Part shown: one piece after another, positions 1-8,829 of the stretch | Layout: every line of letters starts with the position of its first letter | How positions within the stretch are numbered: the first letter of the stretch is position 1 | NCBI GenBank assembly: GCA_963726085.1 | Contig: CAVSAR010000011.1 | Location: 74,298 to 138,297 of the forward strand | Reading direction: 5' to 3' | Length of the DNA: 64,000 nucleotides | Source of the DNA: an uncultured Pseudomonadota bacterium | GTDB taxonomy: Bacteria > Pseudomonadota > Gammaproteobacteria > Steroidobacterales > Steroidobacteraceae | Program-made: the position numbers and the translations under genes | The notes under the pieces: model-generated | Database searches by the model: none | Seen by the model: only the letters and a program-made list of their open reading frames with translations | Told to the model about the DNA's origin: nothing

Positions 1-289
1 TCGGCCTCTCGCATACCTCGATCATCGCCGGCACTAGTGTGCGATTGCGATCAGCCAATGTGGCTTCGGCGCGTACCCAGCGTGAGACTACCGATTTCTT
101 CGACCACAATACGACCACCGCCTTTGCTTCGCGCAGCGCACCCTCTGTGACTTCATCATAGGCTTCACCCGATCGTAAAGCGGCATCCCACCAGACCGTA
201 AGGCCCTCCCGTTCAAAGGCCTCGGCAAACCGGCGCGCCACAGCTTGGTCTTCCCGGTTATAGGAAAGAAAGATTTCGGGCTGCGTCAT
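1..289 (-). CDS. TIR domain protein. Only the N-terminal ~96 codons are in the window; the gene continues beyond position 1.
   Basis: Reverse translation from the ATG at 289 gives MTQPEIFLSYNREDQAVARRFAEAFEREGLTVWWDAALRSGEAYDEVTEGALREAKAVVVLWSKKSVVSRWVRAEATLADRNRTLVPAMIE, a TIR_2-type domain with the same motifs as the three downstream paralogues. There is an ATGA start/stop overlap with the next gene (stop of 286..2076). Confidence 0.7.
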   Translation of the reverse strand, partial: MTQPEIFLSYNREDQAVARRFAEAFEREGLTVWWDAALRSGEAYDEVTEGALREAKAVVVLWSKKSVVSRWVRAEATLADRNRTLVPAMIEVCERP

Positions 290-2076
290 GTACCGCGACT
301 CTCGGCCGATTCAAGTTGGGTGCGCGCGGTCGTCAGCATGGTCACGAACCGCGGATAACTTCGCATGGAATCAAAGTCGTTGTCCTTGTCGACCCATGCC
401 AACCATCCCGAATTTACCTTGCTGAACACGCCTTCCAGCAGGTCGCAGGCGGCTTCGGCGTCGTTCATACGCGCCATACCACAGGAAAGATTATAGAGAA
501 GGCGAACATTGTCGGGATCAAAGAGTACAGCACGACGCGCCCACTCCCTCGCACGATCCACCTCGCCAAGTTGCGCCAAAGCAGGGACCATGAAGCCCAG
601 GGCTCCCCCGTGATCTGGCTCCACCTCTAGCAATTTCTCACAGTGAGACACAAGTATGCGCGCGGCGGCATCGGCTTTCTGTTTGTCCCCGAGCCCGGCA
701 TAAGCCTGGACAATCATCCCAGCGGGCCGATAGGCAACAGGATCCAGGGTCATTGCGATTTCAAAGTGGCGGATGGCGTCCGGGTATTTTTGTCCGGCGA
801 TATCCAGATATCCCGCACACAACTGCGCCTCAAAGGAATTTGGATTCATTCGCAGTGCCGTCTCTATATACGAATGGCCAGCCACCAGATCCATGCCGGC
901 GCCGCGGCCCCGTGCCTCCGCCAGTGCGGCATATCCCTCAGCCAGGTTGGGGTCGAGCGCAATCGCCTTTTCGGCCGCAAGGACCGCCCGATCCAGCGAG
1001 GAACCGCTCACACCCCGCTGGGCCATTTCGCTCTCCGCGAAAGACAGTTGCGCCCACGCCTGGGCGCAGCTGGCATCCAGCTCCACAATGCGATTGCAGA
1101 TTCTCGCGATCAATGGCTGCATGCGTTCGCTGCCGGTACGACTGAACTGCCGCGCCAGCAGGAACAGCTCGTAGGCCTCGGAACTGTTGGTGGTGCGTTG
1201 GGCGATAGCCTTCCGTTCGGCTGGCGCAAGCTTCACCTTCAGCGCGGCGACGATAGCCTGGGAAATCTCCTCCTGGATGGCAAAGATGTCGTCAAGCGTG
1301 CGATCGAACCGGTCGGCCCAGATCTGCGCGTCGGTGGTGACCTCCACCAGCTGCGCGGTAATGCGAACCCGCGACCCGCTCTTGCGAATGCTGCCTTCCA
1401 GGATGTGCGAGACGTGCTGTTCACGCCCGATCTGTGCCGCCGCGATTGTCCTGCCCTTTAACGAAAATGCTGCGTTTCGCGACACGACCGACAGCGCGGA
1501 CACACGCCCCAGGTCTGTAATGATGTCCTCCGTGACGCCGTCGCTGAAATACTCCTGCTCCGGGTCGCCACTCATGTTTACAAACGGCAACACCAATATC
1601 GCGGGACGCACTGATGCACCCTCGTACGGGGCCCTTGATGCCGGATGCGTAATGGCTGCCAGAGGCGACGGTGTAAGCACGGATCGCGCGGCAATGCGCC
1701 GCTTCACATCGGCAACCAGCCCCATCCAGACCCGGTCCTTAGGTGAACCATCCCAATGCATGAGTTCCGCGGATTGCGTCAGCTCGAACATGATGGGCCG
1801 GTCGCAGGTCTCGATCATCACCGGCACCAGTGTCTTGTTGCGATCCGCCAGCGTGGCTTCGGCCCGCACCCAGCGCGAGGCAACAGAGGTCTTTGACCAC
1901 AGCACCACTACGGCCTTGGCTTCACGCAGCGCCTTCTCGGTTACTTCGTCGTAGGCCTCGCCCGAGCGCAGGGTTTCGTCCCACCACACACCAACACCCT
2001 CGCGCTCGAAACCCTCGGCAAATCGTCGCGCGATGACCTGATCCTCACGGCTATATGAAAGAAAGACGTCCGTCAT
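286..2076 (-). CDS. TIR domain protein with a TolB-N/CadC-like sensor module and TPR-like repeats. No TM helix detected.
   Basis: I take the start as the internal Met of ORF 286..2226 (MTDVFLSYSREDQ..., cat at 2074-2076). TIR motifs are VWWDETL, VVVLWSKTSVASRWVRAEAT. They are followed by ILVLPFVNMSGDPEQEYFSDGVTEDII and a TPR-like Ala/Leu-rich C-terminal region. There is no hydrophobic segment between the TIR and sensor modules. Confidence 0.75.
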   Translation of the reverse strand: MTDVFLSYSREDQVIARRFAEGFEREGVGVWWDETLRSGEAYDEVTEKALREAKAVVVLWSKTSVASRWVRAEATLADRNKTLVPVMIETCDRPIMFELTQSAELMHWDGSPKDRVWMGLVADVKRRIAARSVLTPSPLAAITHPASRAPYEGASVRPAILVLPFVNMSGDPEQEYFSDGVTEDIITDLGRVSALSVVSRNAAFSLKGRTIAAAQIGREQHVSHILEGSIRKSGSRVRITAQLVEVTTDAQIWADRFDRTLDDIFAIQEEISQAIVAALKVKLAPAERKAIAQRTTNSSEAYELFLLARQFSRTGSERMQPLIARICNRIVELDASCAQAWAQLSFAESEMAQRGVSGSSLDRAVLAAEKAIALDPNLAEGYAALAEARGRGAGMDLVAGHSYIETALRMNPNSFEAQLCAGYLDIAGQKYPDAIRHFEIAMTLDPVAYRPAGMIVQAYAGLGDKQKADAAARILVSHCEKLLEVEPDHGGALGFMVPALAQLGEVDRAREWARRAVLFDPDNVRLLYNLSCGMARMNDAEAACDLLEGVFSKVNSGWLAWVDKDNDFDSMRSYPRFVTMLTTARTQLESAESRGT

Positions 2077-2095
2077 GACACTGCGCTTGCCCCGA

Positions 2096-4114
2096 TCATT
2101 TGCATTCGAAATCTTCCTTGCCAACTGGTCTGCAGAAGTCACCCCAGTTGCCGGCGGCGCGCCAGTAGGCGGCGACACCAATGTCTTGCAGTAGTTGCTT
2201 GAATCCAGGTTCACCACGTAAATCACGCATTACTGGCCGCCATAGTATGAAGCCCCAGATTTCGAAGCTGTAACCCTTGTGGCTCATGGCCTCGAACGTC
2301 TGCAAAGCAAGCTTGTGATCCCCAAGGTAGGTCGCCCACTGGGCAATACTGGACATGGTGTAGATATTGGCGGTATCCCGCGACTCATATTGCTGGTGCA
2401 GATTGCGCAGGGCCACAGCAGGCTCGTCCAGCAAGGGCTCGCCGGCGACGCTGGATACATCTGGCCCCGCTTCCCTAACTGCGACGAGCGCAGCCTTAAG
2501 CTTCGCTTCATTGCGGCTTGCCATGGCGCGCGTTACGGCAGTACCCAGCAGTGCGGGGGTGCGTCCACCGGGAAGCTGCAATAATTGGCGCATTTCTGCA
2601 TCGGCGCGCTCCACTTCCCCCGTGAGCTCGTATGCCATCAGCAAGTTGGTGCGCGCAAAGATGTCCAGCGGGTCATCCTTCTTCACTTTCTCAAGCACCG
2701 TGACGGCCTCTTTGGCCCGTCCCACGCCCTCCAGGAACTGGCCGTGGCGAAACCGTGCGCGCACCCCCAGCCCCCCGGTCAGTGCCAGGGCCTCATTCAG
2801 CAGCCGCTCCATGCCGATGAGATCGCCCTCGCGAGCCGCGCGATAGGACAAGGCGAAACTGGCCTCGGGGGATTTCGGCGACAGCGCCACAACCCGGTCG
2901 ATCGCCCCGTTGAGCTGGCGCTCGTATGGCGGGAGGGACTGCGGATCGTTGGGTGTAGCGCGGATGTACGCATCCACCAGCCACAGCCATGCCTGGACAT
3001 AGCCCGGATCGAGCGATACAGCGCGCTCCAGGTGCGGCGCCGCGGCGCGCATAGATGCCGTGTCGTTCGAATTGAGCAGCGCCCTGCCGGCAAGAAATTC
3101 GTCGTATGCCGCCACATTTTTCGTGCCGCCACCCCTGGGCGCGCCCATGCGCACCTGCAGTTCCTGGGCCACGGCTTTGGCGATCTCTTCCTGGATGGCA
3201 AAGATATCGTCAAGCGATCGCTCGTAGGTCTCGGACCAAACATGTGACCCGTCCGCAGTATTGATCAGCTGCGCCGTAATCTTGACCCGCTTGCCGGATT
3301 TGCGGACGCTTCCTTCCAGCAGGTGGTTGACGCCGAGCACTTCGCCGATATGCCGTAGGTCCTCGTTCTTTCCCTTGAACGCGAACGATGAAGTACGGCC
3401 AATCACGCGCAGGTCAGGTACCTGTGCCAGCTGGTTGAGCAGCTCCTCCGACAGGCCATCGGAAAAATACTCTTGTTCCGGGTCGGAGGACATGTTGACA
3501 AAGGGCAGGACGGCGATCGACGCCGGCACCGCGGCGGTCGAACTAGCGGGAGTGGACGACGCGACCAATGTACCTTTGGGCGCCAGATGCTGGCGCAGCA
3601 TCCATAGCCCGGCACCCGCAATCAGCAATACGCCGATGCCAATCGCCATCACCGCGCGATTGATCCGGCGCTTGCGATCCGCGGGGATTGCAGGCTGCGT
3701 CGAACGCCCCATTTCGGGATCGCCCTTTTGCACCAGTCGCCGTACGCTTGCCAGGTACGCCTGCCAGTCCTTGTCATTGGCGTCACCAGACCAGTTCGAA
3801 AGGTCCGCGGTCTGCTTTAGTTCGAACATGATCGGCCGTTTGCACGCCTCGATCATCGCTGGCACCAGCGTGCCGCTGCGATCTGCCTGGGTTGCCTCGG
3901 CCCGCACCCAACGCGACGCCACTGACTTCCTTGACCACAGGACGACCACAGCCCGGGCTTCTTCAAGGGCCTTTTCGGTTACTTCGTCATAGTCTTCGCC
4001 AGCATTGAGCGTCTGATCCCACCAGACCGTGAAACCCGCACGTTCAAAGCCCTCGGCAAAGCGTCGTGCAATCGCCTGATCGTCACGGCTATAGGAGAGA
4101 AAGATATCGGGCAT
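2096..4114 (-). CDS. TIR domain single-pass membrane protein: TIR, one TM helix, TolB-N/CadC-like module, TPR-like repeats.
   Basis: Start MPDIFLSYSRDDQ (cat 4112-4114; the annotated ORF begins 70 codons upstream without support). TIR motifs are present. The TM candidate is AVMAIGIGVLLIAGAGLWML. After it come IAVLPFVNMSSDPEQEYFSDGLSEELLNQL and TPR-like repeats. The C-terminus is NWGDFCRPVGKEDFECK. It lies 19 nt downstream of the stop of the previous paralogue. Confidence 0.75.
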   Translation of the reverse strand: MPDIFLSYSRDDQAIARRFAEGFERAGFTVWWDQTLNAGEDYDEVTEKALEEARAVVVLWSRKSVASRWVRAEATQADRSGTLVPAMIEACKRPIMFELKQTADLSNWSGDANDKDWQAYLASVRRLVQKGDPEMGRSTQPAIPADRKRRINRAVMAIGIGVLLIAGAGLWMLRQHLAPKGTLVASSTPASSTAAVPASIAVLPFVNMSSDPEQEYFSDGLSEELLNQLAQVPDLRVIGRTSSFAFKGKNEDLRHIGEVLGVNHLLEGSVRKSGKRVKITAQLINTADGSHVWSETYERSLDDIFAIQEEIAKAVAQELQVRMGAPRGGGTKNVAAYDEFLAGRALLNSNDTASMRAAAPHLERAVSLDPGYVQAWLWLVDAYIRATPNDPQSLPPYERQLNGAIDRVVALSPKSPEASFALSYRAAREGDLIGMERLLNEALALTGGLGVRARFRHGQFLEGVGRAKEAVTVLEKVKKDDPLDIFARTNLLMAYELTGEVERADAEMRQLLQLPGGRTPALLGTAVTRAMASRNEAKLKAALVAVREAGPDVSSVAGEPLLDEPAVALRNLHQQYESRDTANIYTMSSIAQWATYLGDHKLALQTFEAMSHKGYSFEIWGFILWRPVMRDLRGEPGFKQLLQDIGVAAYWRAAGNWGDFCRPVGKEDFECK

Positions 4115-4148
4115 TCTTGAGTCCCTGTTCGGCGGCCGCGCCGAGTGG

Positions 4149-5576
4149 CTAATCCTCGCCGTTTGCGTAGAGTTTGACCACTTCGTACAGGAACCTGCGA
4201 CCGTCCAGCAGCGATTTGACCCGGATGCGTTCATCCAGGCCATGGGCATGCGAACCTTCGGGGTCTGCAAACATGCCCGACAGTCCATAAGTCGGGATTC
4301 CGCCCGCGTCCAGGTACCTGCCATCGGTGGCGCCCACCGACATCGTGGGTATCAGGGGAACGCCTGGCCAGATCTTGGCAGCCACGGCCTGCGCCGGACC
4401 GAGGATGGCGCTTGTCATGCGGGGCGCCTGAGACTGCATGGCAGGTTCTCCGGTCGCGGCCACAGTAATCTTTTCATCGGCGAGCACGTCGCGGATTTCC
4501 CGCTGCACATCCGCGACCGAAACGCCTGGAAGGATGCGACAGTTGACGATAGCGCGTACATGCTGCGGCAGGGCATTGTCCGCATGGCCGCCTTCAATCT
4601 GGGTCACCACGCAGGTTGTGCGCAAGGCGGCGTTCCAGGCGGGGTTGACGGCCCAAAGCCTTTGCACGGCTGGCTCGTCCCGCGGATTGGCCAGCACGGC
4701 GCGCATGTCCTTGGCGATTTGCGGCGCGACCGACTTGCTCATCGCCTCGAAATAGGCGCGCGTGGTCGGATTGAAGGAGACAGTAAAGTCATGCGCGCCC
4801 ATGCGCACCAGCCCGGCACTGAGGCGCACGATCGGATTACTGTGCGTTGGCCGCGCGCTGTGCCCGCCGCCATCGGTTGCCTCCAATGCGAAATCCTGGA
4901 ATCCCTTCTCACCTGCCTGGATCTGCAAGGTAACTGGCCTCCCGTCCTTGTCGAGCTCGCCACCGGCGCCCTCATTGAGTGCGAAGGAGGCGCTGAGCAC
5001 CTGCGGCTGCGCCGCCACCAGCCATTTGACCGTATTGAAGATATCGGGCGTTTCTTCGCCGCAGGTCAGTGCCAACTTGATATCGCGTCGCGGCCTGAAT
5101 CCCTCCTTGCGATACCGAACCAGGTTATCCGTAAACACCGAGGCCATCGCCTTGTCGTCGGCTGCGCCGCGCGCATAGAAGTATCCGCCCTCCTCGACAA
5201 GCTTGAAGGGATCCCGTTGCCAGTCCTTGCGCTTTGCCTCAACCACATCAATATGCGCCAGCAGCAGGATCGGCTTGGCCTTCGGCTCGCGGCCACGCAG
5301 GACGGCAACCAGCGCGCCATCATTTGGGCGGTCTGGCGGTGCGAGGATCTGCATGTCGCCCGCGGGAATCCCCGCTGCCAGCAGGTGTGTGCGCATGGCT
5401 TCGGCCGCCTTCGTGCAGCTACCCACCGAACGCGTCGTGTTGAGTTCCACCAGCTCCTTGTAAAGCGCGCGAAATTCAACCTCCCCTGGGTCGGCCGCCT
5501 GTGACGTGGATGTGCCAGCCACGCTGGCTATCAGAATAGAGACTGCGCCGCGCGCTAGGGCCTTCTTCAGTGACAC
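4149..5576 (-). CDS. M20 family metallopeptidase (dipeptidase/carboxypeptidase-like), secreted.
   Basis: 475 aa with a signal peptide MSLKKALARGAVSILIASVAGTSTSQA and M20 hallmarks (LLLAHIDVV, GAADDK, CGEE). It is embedded between TIR paralogues. Its start overlaps the stop of 5567..7618 by 10 nt. Confidence 0.8.
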   Translation of the reverse strand: MSLKKALARGAVSILIASVAGTSTSQAADPGEVEFRALYKELVELNTTRSVGSCTKAAEAMRTHLLAAGIPAGDMQILAPPDRPNDGALVAVLRGREPKAKPILLLAHIDVVEAKRKDWQRDPFKLVEEGGYFYARGAADDKAMASVFTDNLVRYRKEGFRPRRDIKLALTCGEETPDIFNTVKWLVAAQPQVLSASFALNEGAGGELDKDGRPVTLQIQAGEKGFQDFALEATDGGGHSARPTHSNPIVRLSAGLVRMGAHDFTVSFNPTTRAYFEAMSKSVAPQIAKDMRAVLANPRDEPAVQRLWAVNPAWNAALRTTCVVTQIEGGHADNALPQHVRAIVNCRILPGVSVADVQREIRDVLADEKITVAATGEPAMQSQAPRMTSAILGPAQAVAAKIWPGVPLIPTMSVGATDGRYLDAGGIPTYGLSGMFADPEGSHAHGLDERIRVKSLLDGRRFLYEVVKLYANGED

Positions 5577-7618
5577 TCAAAGTCCTCCGCCCCAACGGGC
5601 TTGCAGTAGTCGCCCCAGTTCGAGGAAGCACGGAAATAGTCAGCCAGTCCGACATCCCGCACGAGATCCTTGAATCGCGCGTCGGAGCGAAGGTCGGACT
5701 TAAGCGGGAGCCAGAGCGCATTTGGCGAATGGAAATCGACCGACACGCGTCTCATGGCGATCAGTGCAAGGTCCTTGTCGTCGAACCTGTCGGCAAACAT
5801 CACGATGACGGACATGCGAACCCGATCCTGGTTCGCTGGATCATCAATGCCTTGCCTGATTGCAGCGCGGGCCTGCTCCCGATTTTCAAACTTCCCGGCC
5901 AGGTCGTGTGCAACCGGCATCGGTATCACCTCCTCGCTAAGCAATCTGTGGAACTGGGCCCTGATGGCCGCCGGCTCCGCATTCTTGCGCGCCAGGATTC
6001 GCATTAACGCGAAAATATTCGATTGCTGATGACTCCCGAGCAGCGTTTGGCTGCGCTCATACTCGGCTTGCGCCTCGCTGCTCCTGCCGACCATGTCCAG
6101 TTGCGCCTGCAGGGCACCGGATACATAGAGTGAGAGCGGATCCGCATCACGCGCCTGCTCCTCGAAGCGCACCAATTCCCTGTTCCTGCCCAGGGTCCCG
6201 AGAATGATGCCGTAGCTTTCACCCGCTTCGTTGCTACTGGATGGCAATGCACCGGCCTTCAAAGCACCGGCCATAGCCTCTTCGGCCTGCGCCCAGTTAT
6301 GCTGACCTACAAACTGGTTGACCCGCAAAATCTGTGCCCACCAGGCATTCGGAGCCAATGTCAAAACGCGCTCCGTCGCAGCGTTCGCCTCGCCGCGCAA
6401 AGCTGCGGACTCACTCTCCGGGACGCCGATCAGCGACTCGCGCAGTGCATAGCTTAGCAATAACCAGGCGCGCGAGAACTGCGGATCAAGCGCAACGCAT
6501 TCACGCAACTCCCGGACGGCATGCATGCCCGCCACCGGCCCGTTTTGGTGATAGATCTGGCGAGCGTGCAGATACTTATCATAGGCCTCCACATCCGTGG
6601 TTCCTCCCTGGACGCGAGGCAGATCCCCTACATCGAGCGTCACGCTCAATGCACGGGCTACATCCTTTGCGACTTCCTCCTGCACCGCGAAGACGCCGCT
6701 GAGTTCGCGATCGTAGGTTTGCGACCATAGGTGCCTGCCGTCCTTGGTACCGATCAGCTGCGTAGTAATTCGCAGATTCTTGCCGTCTTTGCGAACGCTA
6801 CCCTCGAGAATATTGTCCACATCCAGCGTCTTGCCGATCGCCCGAATGTCCTCGCCCTTTCCCTTGAACAGAAAGCTGGAGGTACGCGCGGTGACGCGTA
6901 GCGCCTTGATGTGCGCCAGCTGATTCAGGAGTTCCTCCGTCATACCATCCGAGAAGTAGTCCTGATCGTGCGCTGGTGACATATCGGCAAACGGGAGCAC
7001 CGCAAGCGTGATGTTGGTTTCCGGTTTTACCGCTGGGCTGCCTGCGAGTGCTTGCGTGGCGCCGGCAGCGGAAAATCCGGCAACCCCCTTGGGGCTGTAG
7101 TGGAACCAGATCAGGGCGGCGCCGGCAAGCACCAGCAGTGCCACGGGAATCGCGATCTTGAGCCCCATGCCCGCCCTAGGTCCCGCCATCGCCGTCCCCT
7201 TCGTCGGCGTGGTGGCAACCGGTTCACCTTTGTTCATGTGCCGGCGCAAATCGCCGACGAACGCGAGCCACGACCTGTCGTCCGGATCTCCTTTCCAGTG
7301 CGTCAGCTCCGCCGTGTGTTTGAGCTCGAACATGATCGGCCGGTCGCAGGATTCGATCATTGCCGGCACCAGCGTGCCGCTGCGATCCGCAGTGGTCGCT
7401 TCCGCCCGCACCCAGCGCGATTCAACGGACTTCTTTGACCAGAGCACGACCACTGCCTTGGCTTCGCGCAGGGCGCGCTCTGTCACCTGGTCGTAGTTCT
7501 CGCCCGAGCGCAGTGTTTGGTCCCACCAGACAGTGAATCCTTCGCGCTCGAATCCCTCGGCGAAGCGGCGCGCGGTCACCTGATCGTCCCGGCTATAAGA
7601 AAGGAAAATGTCGGTCAT
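5567..7618 (-). CDS. TIR domain single-pass membrane protein: TIR, one TM helix, TolB-N/CadC-like module, TPR-like repeats.
   Basis: 683 aa: MTDIFLSYSRDDQVTARRFAEGFEREGFTVWWDQTL...VVVLWSKKSVESRWVRAEAT. TM helix IAIPVALLVLAGAALIWF, then LAVLPFADMSPAHDQDYFSDGMTEELLNQL. The C-terminus NWGDYCKPVGAEDFECH parallels that of 2096..4114. Confidence 0.8.
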   Translation of the reverse strand: MTDIFLSYSRDDQVTARRFAEGFEREGFTVWWDQTLRSGENYDQVTERALREAKAVVVLWSKKSVESRWVRAEATTADRSGTLVPAMIESCDRPIMFELKHTAELTHWKGDPDDRSWLAFVGDLRRHMNKGEPVATTPTKGTAMAGPRAGMGLKIAIPVALLVLAGAALIWFHYSPKGVAGFSAAGATQALAGSPAVKPETNITLAVLPFADMSPAHDQDYFSDGMTEELLNQLAHIKALRVTARTSSFLFKGKGEDIRAIGKTLDVDNILEGSVRKDGKNLRITTQLIGTKDGRHLWSQTYDRELSGVFAVQEEVAKDVARALSVTLDVGDLPRVQGGTTDVEAYDKYLHARQIYHQNGPVAGMHAVRELRECVALDPQFSRAWLLLSYALRESLIGVPESESAALRGEANAATERVLTLAPNAWWAQILRVNQFVGQHNWAQAEEAMAGALKAGALPSSSNEAGESYGIILGTLGRNRELVRFEEQARDADPLSLYVSGALQAQLDMVGRSSEAQAEYERSQTLLGSHQQSNIFALMRILARKNAEPAAIRAQFHRLLSEEVIPMPVAHDLAGKFENREQARAAIRQGIDDPANQDRVRMSVIVMFADRFDDKDLALIAMRRVSVDFHSPNALWLPLKSDLRSDARFKDLVRDVGLADYFRASSNWGDYCKPVGAEDFECH

Positions 7619-7806
7619 TCACGGTTCCTGATGTGCTCGCCGGCAATTGGGTCAGGCCTCGCCAAGTGTAAGCGCTCCGCATCTGCACCGCCCGCCTCAA
7701 CTGGCGTATTGCCAAGAACACACGGGAGTTTGTCGGATCTCACCATGTGGGTGAGAAAACCAGGATGCGGAGCGGGTGGTAGCCGGGCTGACCCGACGCC
7801 CGCGGA

Positions 7807-8829
7807 CTAGGGCTTGCGCGCCATGACTAGCGAGTAATAGCCCCCGCCCGTACGCCAAGCCTCAATGTCGGCAAATCCGGCAGCCTCCAGAAACCCGCGC
7901 AGCTCTGGCAGGGTGTACTGCCTGCCCTTGGTACCCAGCAGCATCATCATCGAGAACGCGGCCGGCGCCAGTGGCCCACAGCCGTCATCGTCAATCAGCA
8001 TTTCGTGCAGCAGGATGCGCCCGCCGGCAGGCAGCGCCTCAAAGGACTTGCGCGCCAAAATGCGGCAGGTGGCGTCCGACCAGTCGTGAAAGATATTTGA
8101 GAAGAAGTGCGCGTCATGTCCGCGCGGCCAGTTCTCGGTGAACATGTTGACCGCTTGCGTTGATACCTGCGCCTGGACGCCAGCCGCCGCAATGTACTGG
8201 TCGGCTTCCACGCAGACCTGCGTGATCTCCATCACCGTGGCCCGCAGCTCGGGCCACGCTTTTGCCAGCCGGATCGGGAATATGCCCGATCCACCGCCCA
8301 CGTCCAGCAGCGACCGCACCTCGGAAAACAGCGGTTGCGCGGCAACACCCCGCGCAGCCGCCTGGCTGTGCGCATTCATGAAGGCCGTGATGAAATTGGC
8401 GAACTCCGGCGTCATCGCGCCACGTTCCCATTCATCCACGGAAGACAGTCCTCCCTGCGGGCGGCTGCCGGTGCGAAGTGTCGCAAGCATCTGCTTGTGC
8501 AGGAGCTCACGCTCGCGAAAGATGCCCAGCATGGGACCGTAATAGCCCTCTGCCTGCGGATGCATCCACATGCGGCTGGCGGCGGTCGCTCGCCAGCGGC
8601 CTTCGCGTCGCTCCACGAAACCCAGTGCCGCCAGAAGCCCCAGGTGAATCAGCAGCGCGCGCGCATCCACCTTGAGTTCGGTGGCCAATTCCGCGGTGGT
8701 CAGGGACCGCGATGAGATCGCCGTAAAAGTACCGACCTCATCAGCCACCGTGAGGACCGGCATCCGGTACTGCGACAGCCAGGTATCCCAGATGATCTTG
8801 TCGTCGCTGGTCGCGGGCAGTGCACTCAC
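7807..8829 (-). CDS. Class I SAM-dependent O-methyltransferase (family 2 OMT-like).
   Basis: 340 aa with an N-terminal dimerisation-like region and the SAM motif LLDVGGGSG. It lies 11 nt downstream of the MFS transporter gene. Confidence 0.75.
   Translation of the reverse strand: MSALPATSDDKIIWDTWLSQYRMPVLTVADEVGTFTAISSRSLTTAELATELKVDARALLIHLGLLAALGFVERREGRWRATAASRMWMHPQAEGYYGPMLGIFRERELLHKQMLATLRTGSRPQGGLSSVDEWERGAMTPEFANFITAFMNAHSQAAARGVAAQPLFSEVRSLLDVGGGSGIFPIRLAKAWPELRATVMEITQVCVEADQYIAAAGVQAQVSTQAVNMFTENWPRGHDAHFFSNIFHDWSDATCRILARKSFEALPAGGRILLHEMLIDDDGCGPLAPAAFSMMMLLGTKGRQYTLPELRGFLEAAGFADIEAWRTGGGYYSLVMARKP

Follow-up and report, generated by a model that had tools for sequence, protein, structure and literature searches.

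The gene P1 lies near the start of a 64,000-nucleotide (nt) stretch of DNA from an uncultured bacterium of the Steroidobacteraceae (assembly GCA_963726085.1, contig CAVSAR010000011.1, positions 74,298 to 138,297), hereafter called the window. It encodes a TIR protein that is predicted to be wholly cytoplasmic, and it stands in an array of TIR genes together with two paralogues, P2 and P3, that each carry a transmembrane (TM) helix. P1 is probably the cytoplasmic sensor-enzyme, that is, one of the inputs, of a multi-sensor Thoeris-like TIR operon in which it acts alongside periplasm-facing TM paralogues. This reading is given a probability of about 0.6. It draws on three lines of evidence: the architecture of P1 and its large family, the membrane topology of the paralogues, and the repeated placement of P1 orthologues upstream of a gene for a membrane protein with a SLOG-fold domain and SLATT-like hairpins.

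Architecture and family of P1

The translated open reading frame (ORF) of P1 begins with MTDVFLSYSRED, passes through the linker RRIAARSVLTPSPLAAITHPASRAPYEGASVRPAI into LVLPFVNMSGDPEQEYFSDG, and ends with ...TARTQLESAESRGT. A protein of 596 amino acids (aa) identical to it is on record as database entry P0001. The chain is composed of an N-terminal TIR domain, an alpha/beta module marked by the motifs LPF and YFSDG, and a C-terminal TPR solenoid. Pfam assigned the family TIR_2 (PF13676) to aa 4-104 with an E value of 1.8e-21 and 77.3 bits against a cutoff of 28, and also found several TPR families. The tail was recognised in NCBIfam as the end-of-group cap TPR_END_plus (48.8 bits against a cutoff of 32). 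An AlphaFold2 model built on a 116-sequence alignment, with a mean predicted local distance difference test score (pLDDT) of 83, gave the same layout: TIR at aa 1-133, disorder at aa 134-155, alpha/beta structure at about aa 159-283 and an all-helical solenoid at aa 299-595. The stretch of aa 134-155, where the pLDDT falls below 50, is modelled as disordered and not as a helix.

A preliminary description of this DNA had proposed that P1 combines the TIR domain and the LPF...YFSDG module with neither the TM helix nor the NWGD[FY]C...DFEC tail of the membrane copies, so that it may be a soluble variant. All of these points were borne out. In a Kyte-Doolittle scan with a 19-aa window, the maximum of P1 is 0.95, which lies inside the alpha/beta module, and no window reaches 1.0, whereas P2 peaks at 2.31 (aa 155) and P3 at 2.29 (aa 152). 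The alignment of the paralogues places an insertion of about 45 residues with a hydrophobic helix in P2 and P3, together with the tail NWGD[FY]C.PVG.EDFEC, and no equivalent of their Cys-pair C-terminus (WGD[FY]C..P.G..DFEC) is found in P1. The linker of P1, of 25-35 aa, takes the position of a TM-containing linker of about 80 aa in P2 and P3. With no TM helix, no signal peptide and the TIR domain itself as its N-terminus, P1 is predicted from its sequence to be wholly cytoplasmic.

An indel error in the assembly had been named as a possible cause of the TM-less state. Translation of all frames revealed no hydrophobic stretch in the two other reading frames of 1500..1760, and no NWGD..DFEC motif downstream of the P1 stop in any frame of 1..420. 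Moreover, the distance from the TIR domain to the LPF motif is 159 aa in P1 and 157-159 aa in its orthologues. This agreement in spacing excludes an indel artefact.

The TIR domain retains a putative catalytic residue. Glu73 (E73), within SRWVRAE, aligns with the Glu of DWTNYE in AbTir and of SRWCLDE in RUN1, in the W..E motif of helix alphaC, and it does not vary in 116 family sequences. The aligned Glu of this motif is the catalytic residue in AbTir and RUN1. The alpha/beta module gave only sub-threshold matches in NCBIfam, to CadC over aa 171-317 (25.7 bits, cutoff 400) and to the N-terminal part of TolB over aa 152-287. By Foldseek, the modelled domain matched the periplasmic domain of CadC (3LY9/3LYA) with an E value of about 5e-6 and a TM-score of 0.43-0.44 normalised to the target. 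As modelled, the module resembles the CadC periplasmic domain, and this is a likeness, not membership.

Homologues of P1 are numerous, with 7903 proteins at an E value of 1e-10 or lower. The family figures given here rest on the best 120 clusters of these homologues, of which 116 are full-length and four are fragments. These clusters are 58-100% identical to P1, and the full-length ones cover 97-100% of the query and measure 565-652 aa, mostly 583-615 aa. Their hosts are Caulobacteraceae, Hyphomonadaceae, Sphingomonadales, Steroidobacteraceae and other Pseudomonadota known from metagenome-assembled genomes (MAGs). Sequence conservation is high across the Alpha- and Gammaproteobacteria, with about 110 invariant columns in the alignment of 116 sequences. 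No cluster (0/120) has a hydrophobic window of at least 1.6, none (0/120) has the Cys pair, and the tail ...DPIRxHPRFxALM... recurs in nearly all of them. The best match to P1 among GTDB representatives has 63% identity; for P2, the nearest orthologue comes from the MAG 'Pseudomonadota bacterium cluster3_bin.2' (locus L077).

P1 is under strong purifying selection. Compared with its 78%-identical orthologue in locus L081, the ratio of nonsynonymous to synonymous substitution rates (dN/dS) is 0.12 overall, a value that is approximate, as are all those given here, because dS is near saturation. By region, the ratio is 0.055 in the module, 0.07 in the TIR domain, 0.14 in the TPR part and highest, at 0.23, in the linker. 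P2 and its orthologue give 0.18, above the value of P1. In neighbour-joining (NJ) trees of 126 TIR-sensor proteins, P1 is nested deep in an all-soluble group, and its family is split from every TM-bearing protein in 100/100 bootstraps. The view of P1 as a P2/P3-type protein that had lost its TM helix and Cys pair is contradicted by that split and by the identities, which are 58-89% to its own family against 40-41% to P2 and P3. As judged by these comparisons, P1 is an ordinary member of a large, old and always-soluble family of predicted cytoplasmic TIR-plus-sensor proteins.

The names in current use hide this relationship. In JGI records, members of the soluble P1 family are mostly called 'adenylate cyclase' and those of the membrane P2/P3 family 'TolB-like protein', and the TIR domain is ignored in both. 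No cyclase domain was found in P1 in the Pfam and NCBIfam scans, and the name 'adenylate cyclase' is an annotation transferred from a shared C-terminal part. Presumably, the source is a set of class III cyclases that carry the same LPF-module and TPR region. In the literature searches made, this TIR/CadC-like/TPR family did not appear in any paper.

Membrane paralogues and the array in the window

The two membrane paralogues (Table 1) end with NWGDFCRPVGKEDFECK in P2 and NWGDYCKPVGAEDFECH in P3. P2 is 41% and P3 40% identical to P1 overall; over the TIR domain alone, the identity of the paralogues to P1 rises to 69-75%. The P2 family forms a separate large group. Of its 122 listed members, 112 reach 1.8 or more in the Kyte-Doolittle scan, in most cases near aa 150-165, and the Cys-pair tail is present in nearly all that are full-length. 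The flanks of the TM helix carry on average 3.1 Lys and Arg residues on the N-terminal side and 1.7 on the C-terminal side, with the N-terminal side richer in 83/108 proteins, as described by the positive-inside rule. Furthermore, the sensor of P2 is 51-62% identical to the sensors of regulators built from a winged helix-turn-helix (wHTH) domain, a TM helix and a sensor. The DNA-binding domain of such regulators must be cytoplasmic. The positive-inside rule and the sensor shared with these wHTH-TM regulators together assign to P2 and P3 a cytoplasmic TIR domain and a periplasmic sensor.

In seven records (P0162, P0207, P0213, P0215, P0220, P0222 and P0231), a Trans_reg_C winged helix stands where P2 has its TIR domain, with the TM helix, sensor, TPR region and Cys-pair tail kept as in P2. 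Such sequences indicate a swap of output domains, TIR or wHTH, on one sensor cassette.

The Cys pair tracks the TM helix: it is present in 33/34 TM proteins and absent from 89/91 soluble ones, counts that are not phylogenetically independent. This co-occurrence fits a periplasmic disulfide in the TM forms. A second soluble group, outside the P1 family, has kept the ...DDFE[VI].. or ...PVG.DDFE.. tail, and both Cys are mostly replaced by Ala, Val or Ile. Examples are found in L038, L041, L045-L049, P0236 and P0239, with L041:1568-3496 and L046:13522-15474 as exceptions that have Cys. A bipartition of the tree into a TM clade with this soluble subclade nested in it and the all-soluble clade was considered and not adopted, as it received 61/100 bootstraps and was missing under one distance model. 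On this support, the second soluble group may be either nested in the TM clade or sister to it, and the TM helix may have been either gained or lost.

Table 1. Features of the TIR array in the window and gene order in loci with P1 orthologues (aa, amino acids; ORF, open reading frame; TM, transmembrane)
Feature or locus	Position in window	Strand	P1 orthologue (identity)	Description
P1	286..2076	-		Soluble TIR / LPF-module / TPR protein, 596 aa; stop codon 286..288; from ORF and translation
P1 TIR domain	1678..2076	-		aa 1-133; codon of putative catalytic Glu73 at 1858..1860
P1 linker	1606..1677	-		aa 134-157; disordered, non-hydrophobic (Kyte-Doolittle; pLDDT <50 at aa 134-155; dN/dS 0.23)
P1 alpha/beta LPF...YFSDG module	1207..1605	-		aa 158-290; resembles CadC periplasmic and TolB N-terminal domains
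P1 TPR solenoid	289..1206	-		aa 291-596; end-of-group cap where P2 and P3 have the Cys-pair tail
P2	2096..4114	-		Membrane-anchored paralogue, 672 aa; TM helix aa 155-173 (3596..3652); Cys-pair C-terminus
P3	5567..7618	-		Membrane-anchored paralogue, 683 aa; TM helix aa 152-170 (7109..7165); Cys-pair C-terminus
P4	1..289	-		Fourth TIR gene; first 96 aa in window, rest past window start; ATG overlaps P1 stop (ATGA)
M20 peptidase gene	4149..5576	-		Between P3 and P2; Pfam Peptidase_M20 and M20_dimer
L081			78%	M20, TM P2 orthologue (63%), soluble P1 orthologue, TM copy (681 aa), soluble 555-aa copy, 677-aa SLOG-SLATT protein
L082			78%	Shorter contig with part of an L081-type array: TM P2 orthologue, P1 orthologue; a further TM copy
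L083			78%	Shorter contig with part of an L081-type array: TM P2 orthologue, P1 orthologue
L084			80%	P2 orthologue, P1 orthologue, 557-aa soluble copy, 677-aa SLOG-SLATT protein
L080			89%	Long-read contig, frameshifted; P1 orthologue, then directly SLOG-SLATT gene
L085			86%	P1 orthologue, then directly SLOG-SLATT gene
L090			87%	Only 3' fragment of P1 orthologue, then directly SLOG-SLATT gene

Where three TIR paralogues had been described, the window holds four TIR genes. The fourth, P4, starts with MTQPEIFLSYNREDQAVARRF... from position 289 of the reverse strand. Its visible 96 aa are 85-88% identical to the N-termini of a soluble TIR-TPR class of 555 or 557 aa (L081:6922-8589 and L084:3651-5324). 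Because P4 best matches this TM-less class, P1 is probably not the only soluble copy, and the array would consist of two soluble and two membrane copies. On these matches, the array of the window most likely mirrors that of L084. P2 ends 19 nt before the start of P1. With its start at 4114, P2 corresponds to the 672-aa database record P0121; its ORF (2096..4324) continues for 70 codons ahead of the MPDIFLSY start and there runs into the end of the M20 gene. The M20 ORF is listed with a GTG start at 5576, which overlaps the P3 stop by 10 nt, and the true start may be further downstream. An M20 gene also precedes the TIR array in L080, L081 and L085, and it is probably syntenic context outside the system. 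A promoter and terminator scan of 1..8200 returned counts at chance level.

Orthologous loci and the SLOG-SLATT protein

The preliminary description had suggested looking for a TM-less copy in the orthologous arrays of relatives, and such a copy recurs in all seven loci (L080-L085 and L090; Table 1). The TM-less state is kept in every P1 orthologue seen there, at 78-89% identity. All 7/7 loci with P1 orthologues of at least 78% identity fit an array position upstream of the SLOG-SLATT gene, and five of them reach it (L080, L081, L084, L085 and L090). At the junctions of these five loci, adjoining genes overlap by 4 nt or are separated by gaps of a few tens of nt. In L080, L085 and L090, no TIR gene other than the P1 orthologue was seen ahead of the SLOG-SLATT gene, and in L080 and L085 the interval from the M20 gene to the P1 orthologue contains no further TIR gene. 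Of the TIR genes in the orthologous loci, the P1 orthologue accompanies the 677-aa protein most constantly.

Some peculiarities of these loci are worth recording. L080, the closest syntenic relative, encodes at L080:3343-5052 a TIR_2 domain fused to an FGE-sulfatase (formylglycine-generating-enzyme-like) domain; the gene lies roughly at the place of P3 and adjoins an MFS transporter gene and the M20 gene. On the same ENA long-read contig, the M20 gene (L080:7186-8622) and the P1 orthologue (L080:9507-11287) are each split into two ORFs, most likely by frameshift errors in that assembly; the copies in the window are intact. At the place of P2, between the M20 gene and the P1 orthologue, L080:8631-9343 and L085:464-1179 hold a divergent pair of genes for an HTH_26/HTH_31 regulator and a DUF2975 membrane protein. 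This pair may be a local operon regulator in the genomes of L080 and L085.

The partner is a protein of about 677 aa with a SLOG-fold domain and two SLATT-like TM hairpins, modelled by AlphaFold2 with a mean pLDDT of 90. The SLOG domain (aa 18-260) was assigned solely by fold comparison, and SLATT_1, SLATT_3 and DUF4231 match the protein below threshold. A profile search against PDB sequences gave nothing significant, the best non-antibody match being a nucleoside 2-deoxyribosyltransferase with an E value of 0.45. In 10 of the first 83 loci, and additionally in L084, L085 and L090, the partner gene comes directly after the last TIR gene. When metagenomes were scanned with the partner as query, a TIR gene was present within 8 kb in 24/50 loci, counting those with at least 2.2 kb of upstream sequence. 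These TIR genes lie upstream on the same strand, divergently, or just downstream. Almost all full-length ones encode TIR-sensor proteins of about 580-720 aa that align with P2 or P1 through the sensor, and a few have a different C-terminal part. The link between TIR genes and the partner is frequent, not obligatory. The partner homologue P0245 is 78% identical to the L080 copy and is recorded on a 302,158-nt NCBI/ENA contig that matches the contig of P1, P2 and P3 in size and sources. From this matching contig record, P0245 probably lies just beyond the left edge of the window.

Proposed function and comparison with known systems

In the proposed mechanism, the sensor unit of P1, made up of the CadC/TolB-N-like module and the TPR solenoid, would bind a cytoplasmic cue. 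TIR domains would then associate, and nicotinamide adenine dinucleotide (NAD+) would be cleaved or cyclised to a signal of the ADP-ribose (ADPR) type. This signal would bind the SLOG domain of the membrane protein encoded last in the operon of the orthologous loci, and membrane permeability would change. P1 would be co-transcribed with P2 and P3, whose single TM helix, with the N-terminus inside, would put their sensor unit in the periplasm. Soluble and membrane TIR paralogues would then be parallel inputs from the cytoplasm and the periplasm to one effector, as in multi-ThsB Thoeris. By analogy, P1 would have NADase or cyclase activity, would respond to a ligand and would signal to the partner, and an anti-phage role may be envisaged.

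A more specific version can be proposed tentatively, as a possible rather than a probable extension. TIR surveillance would be partitioned by compartment, with the sensors of P2 and P3 in the periplasm and those of P1 and P4 in the cytoplasm, and would converge through an NAD-derived nucleotide on one SLOG-SLATT effector, either in phage defence or in a non-immune pathway. The membrane copies would then have a Toll-like-receptor-like layout in a bacterium.

Several observations weigh against a Thoeris-like operon. The partner gene was not found in the window. Partner homologues of about 62% identity occur beside cydABX or metabolic genes with no TIR gene. For P1-family members at 58-63% identity, most of them solitary, no SLOG-SLATT gene was found within 10 kb, and ORF clustering over 5 kb around the solitary genes revealed no conserved neighbour shared by more than four loci, except antisense ORFs of tandem TIR genes. 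The neighbourhood in the window is metabolic (M20 peptidase, O-methyltransferase, MFS transporter and TraB/GumN), with no recognisable defence island. No Thoeris model of PADLOC or NCBIfam matched above threshold: Thoeris_type3_ThcB4 of NCBIfam reached 23-32 bits against a cutoff of 220, and the ThsB models of PADLOC match the TIR core only (E values of 2.6e-6 to 6e-4). Additionally, the TM assignments are based on hydropathy and AlphaFold2 and not on a dedicated topology predictor.

Four other explanations have to be weighed. The one that survives best, yet is unlikely, takes P1 as a self-contained sensor-effector whose TIR domain depletes NAD+, like the NADases SARM1 and AbTir, and needs no partner; the operon link would be a lineage-specific add-on. 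It has to account for the fact that all seven loci with close P1 orthologues fit the placement upstream of the SLOG-SLATT gene and five reach it, and for the strong enrichment of TIR-sensor genes in the loci found with the partner as query.

Somewhat less likely still is a non-immune array for physiological signalling, in which the periplasmic sensors of P2 and P3 and the cytoplasmic sensors of P1 and P4 would relay cues from the environment or from metabolism by way of a second messenger derived from NAD. The fusion of the same sensor cassette to wHTH outputs, at 51-62% identity as in ToxR/CadC-type regulators, speaks for it, as do the metabolic context devoid of defence genes, the high conservation of the P1 family across two proteobacterial classes, and the occurrence of the SLOG-SLATT protein alone beside housekeeping operons. 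However, TIR content differs among close relatives, from one to four genes and with the TIR-FGE fusion in L080, as is typical of conflict loci, and a TIR domain combined with SLOG or SLATT is a Thoeris-type defence signature.

The preliminary description had kept the soluble cytoplasmic variant, which stands, next to two ideas that are not supported. One was a decoy or regulator; a non-catalytic P1 would then hetero-oligomerise with the membrane TIR proteins and tune their activity. Co-transcription with P2, across a 19-nt gap, and with P4, through the ATGA overlap, is in keeping with it, and the similarity of the paralogous TIR domains makes mixed assemblies conceivable. It is nevertheless very improbable, given the complete invariance of the TIR core, catalytic Glu included, a TIR dN/dS of 0.07, three loci in which no TIR gene besides the P1 orthologue was seen ahead of the effector gene, and a family that mostly occurs with no TM paralogues nearby. 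The other, a degenerating copy of the P2/P3 type, or likewise an assembly artefact, has only the shorter length and the missing motifs in its favour and is of negligible probability against an intact, full-length ORF with an identical protein on record, nothing hidden in other frames, a linker as long as in orthologues, a dN/dS below that of P2, the same architecture in 120/120 clusters and the unanimous bootstrap split from the TM proteins.

P1 alone is an ordinary soluble member of a populous, uncharacterised TIR-TPR family. The surrounding system, in which TIR sensors of the soluble and of the periplasm-facing kind are linked in one operon with a SLOG-SLATT protein, appears to be an undescribed variant and is moderately interesting. 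The same sensor cassette occurs with a TIR or a wHTH output, either anchored in the membrane or not. Should the TIR domains signal to the SLOG-SLATT protein, this would be a Thoeris-like system with periplasmic inputs, which is not described in the Thoeris literature examined. If so, a function would be assigned to thousands of proteins now named 'TIR domain-containing', 'TolB-like' or, wrongly, 'adenylate cyclase'.

Comparison with characterised proteins sets P1 apart in several respects. Unlike the rhizobial-type adenylate cyclase proteins, it has no cyclase domain in Pfam or NCBIfam. From the TIR domains of AbTir, RUN1 and SARM1, which are solved NADases, it differs by low similarity (E values of 2e-5 to 1e-3 over about 70 aa) and by other partner domains. 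P2 and P3 share the TM helix, sensor module, TPR region and Cys-pair tail with the Trans_reg_C proteins (51-62%), and in this they are like the ToxR/CadC regulators with their wHTH, TM helix and periplasmic sensor. Unlike in those regulators, the output is TIR and not wHTH, and P1 has no TM helix, so its sensor would be cytoplasmic.

The closest parallels are found in Thoeris. YpsA-clade SLOG domains have been implicated in the sensing of cyclic ADPR (cADPR), SLATT is a predicted membrane effector gated by ADPR derivatives, and TIR-SLATT neighbourhoods are already known (PMC9503650). Type I has the SIR2-SLOG protein ThsA. Type III comprises several TIR proteins and a SLOG effector, and type VII a TIR protein and the SLATT effector ThsH, with canonical cADPR as the signal (bioRxiv 10.64898/2025.12.03.692087). 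Unlike in these types, the TIR proteins here carry a large CadC/TolB-N-like and TPR sensor unit, some copies are predicted single-pass membrane proteins with a periplasmic sensor, and the candidate effector joins SLOG and two SLATT-like hairpins in one 677-aa chain whose gene lies outside the window; the sub-threshold hidden Markov model matches and the lack of a defence-island context set the array apart as well. Like Thoeris, the orthologous loci combine an operonic TIR protein that has the catalytic Glu, often in several paralogues, with an adjoining protein of SLOG fold and SLATT-like hairpins, domains to which the literature gives the roles of signal binding and membrane disruption, respectively.

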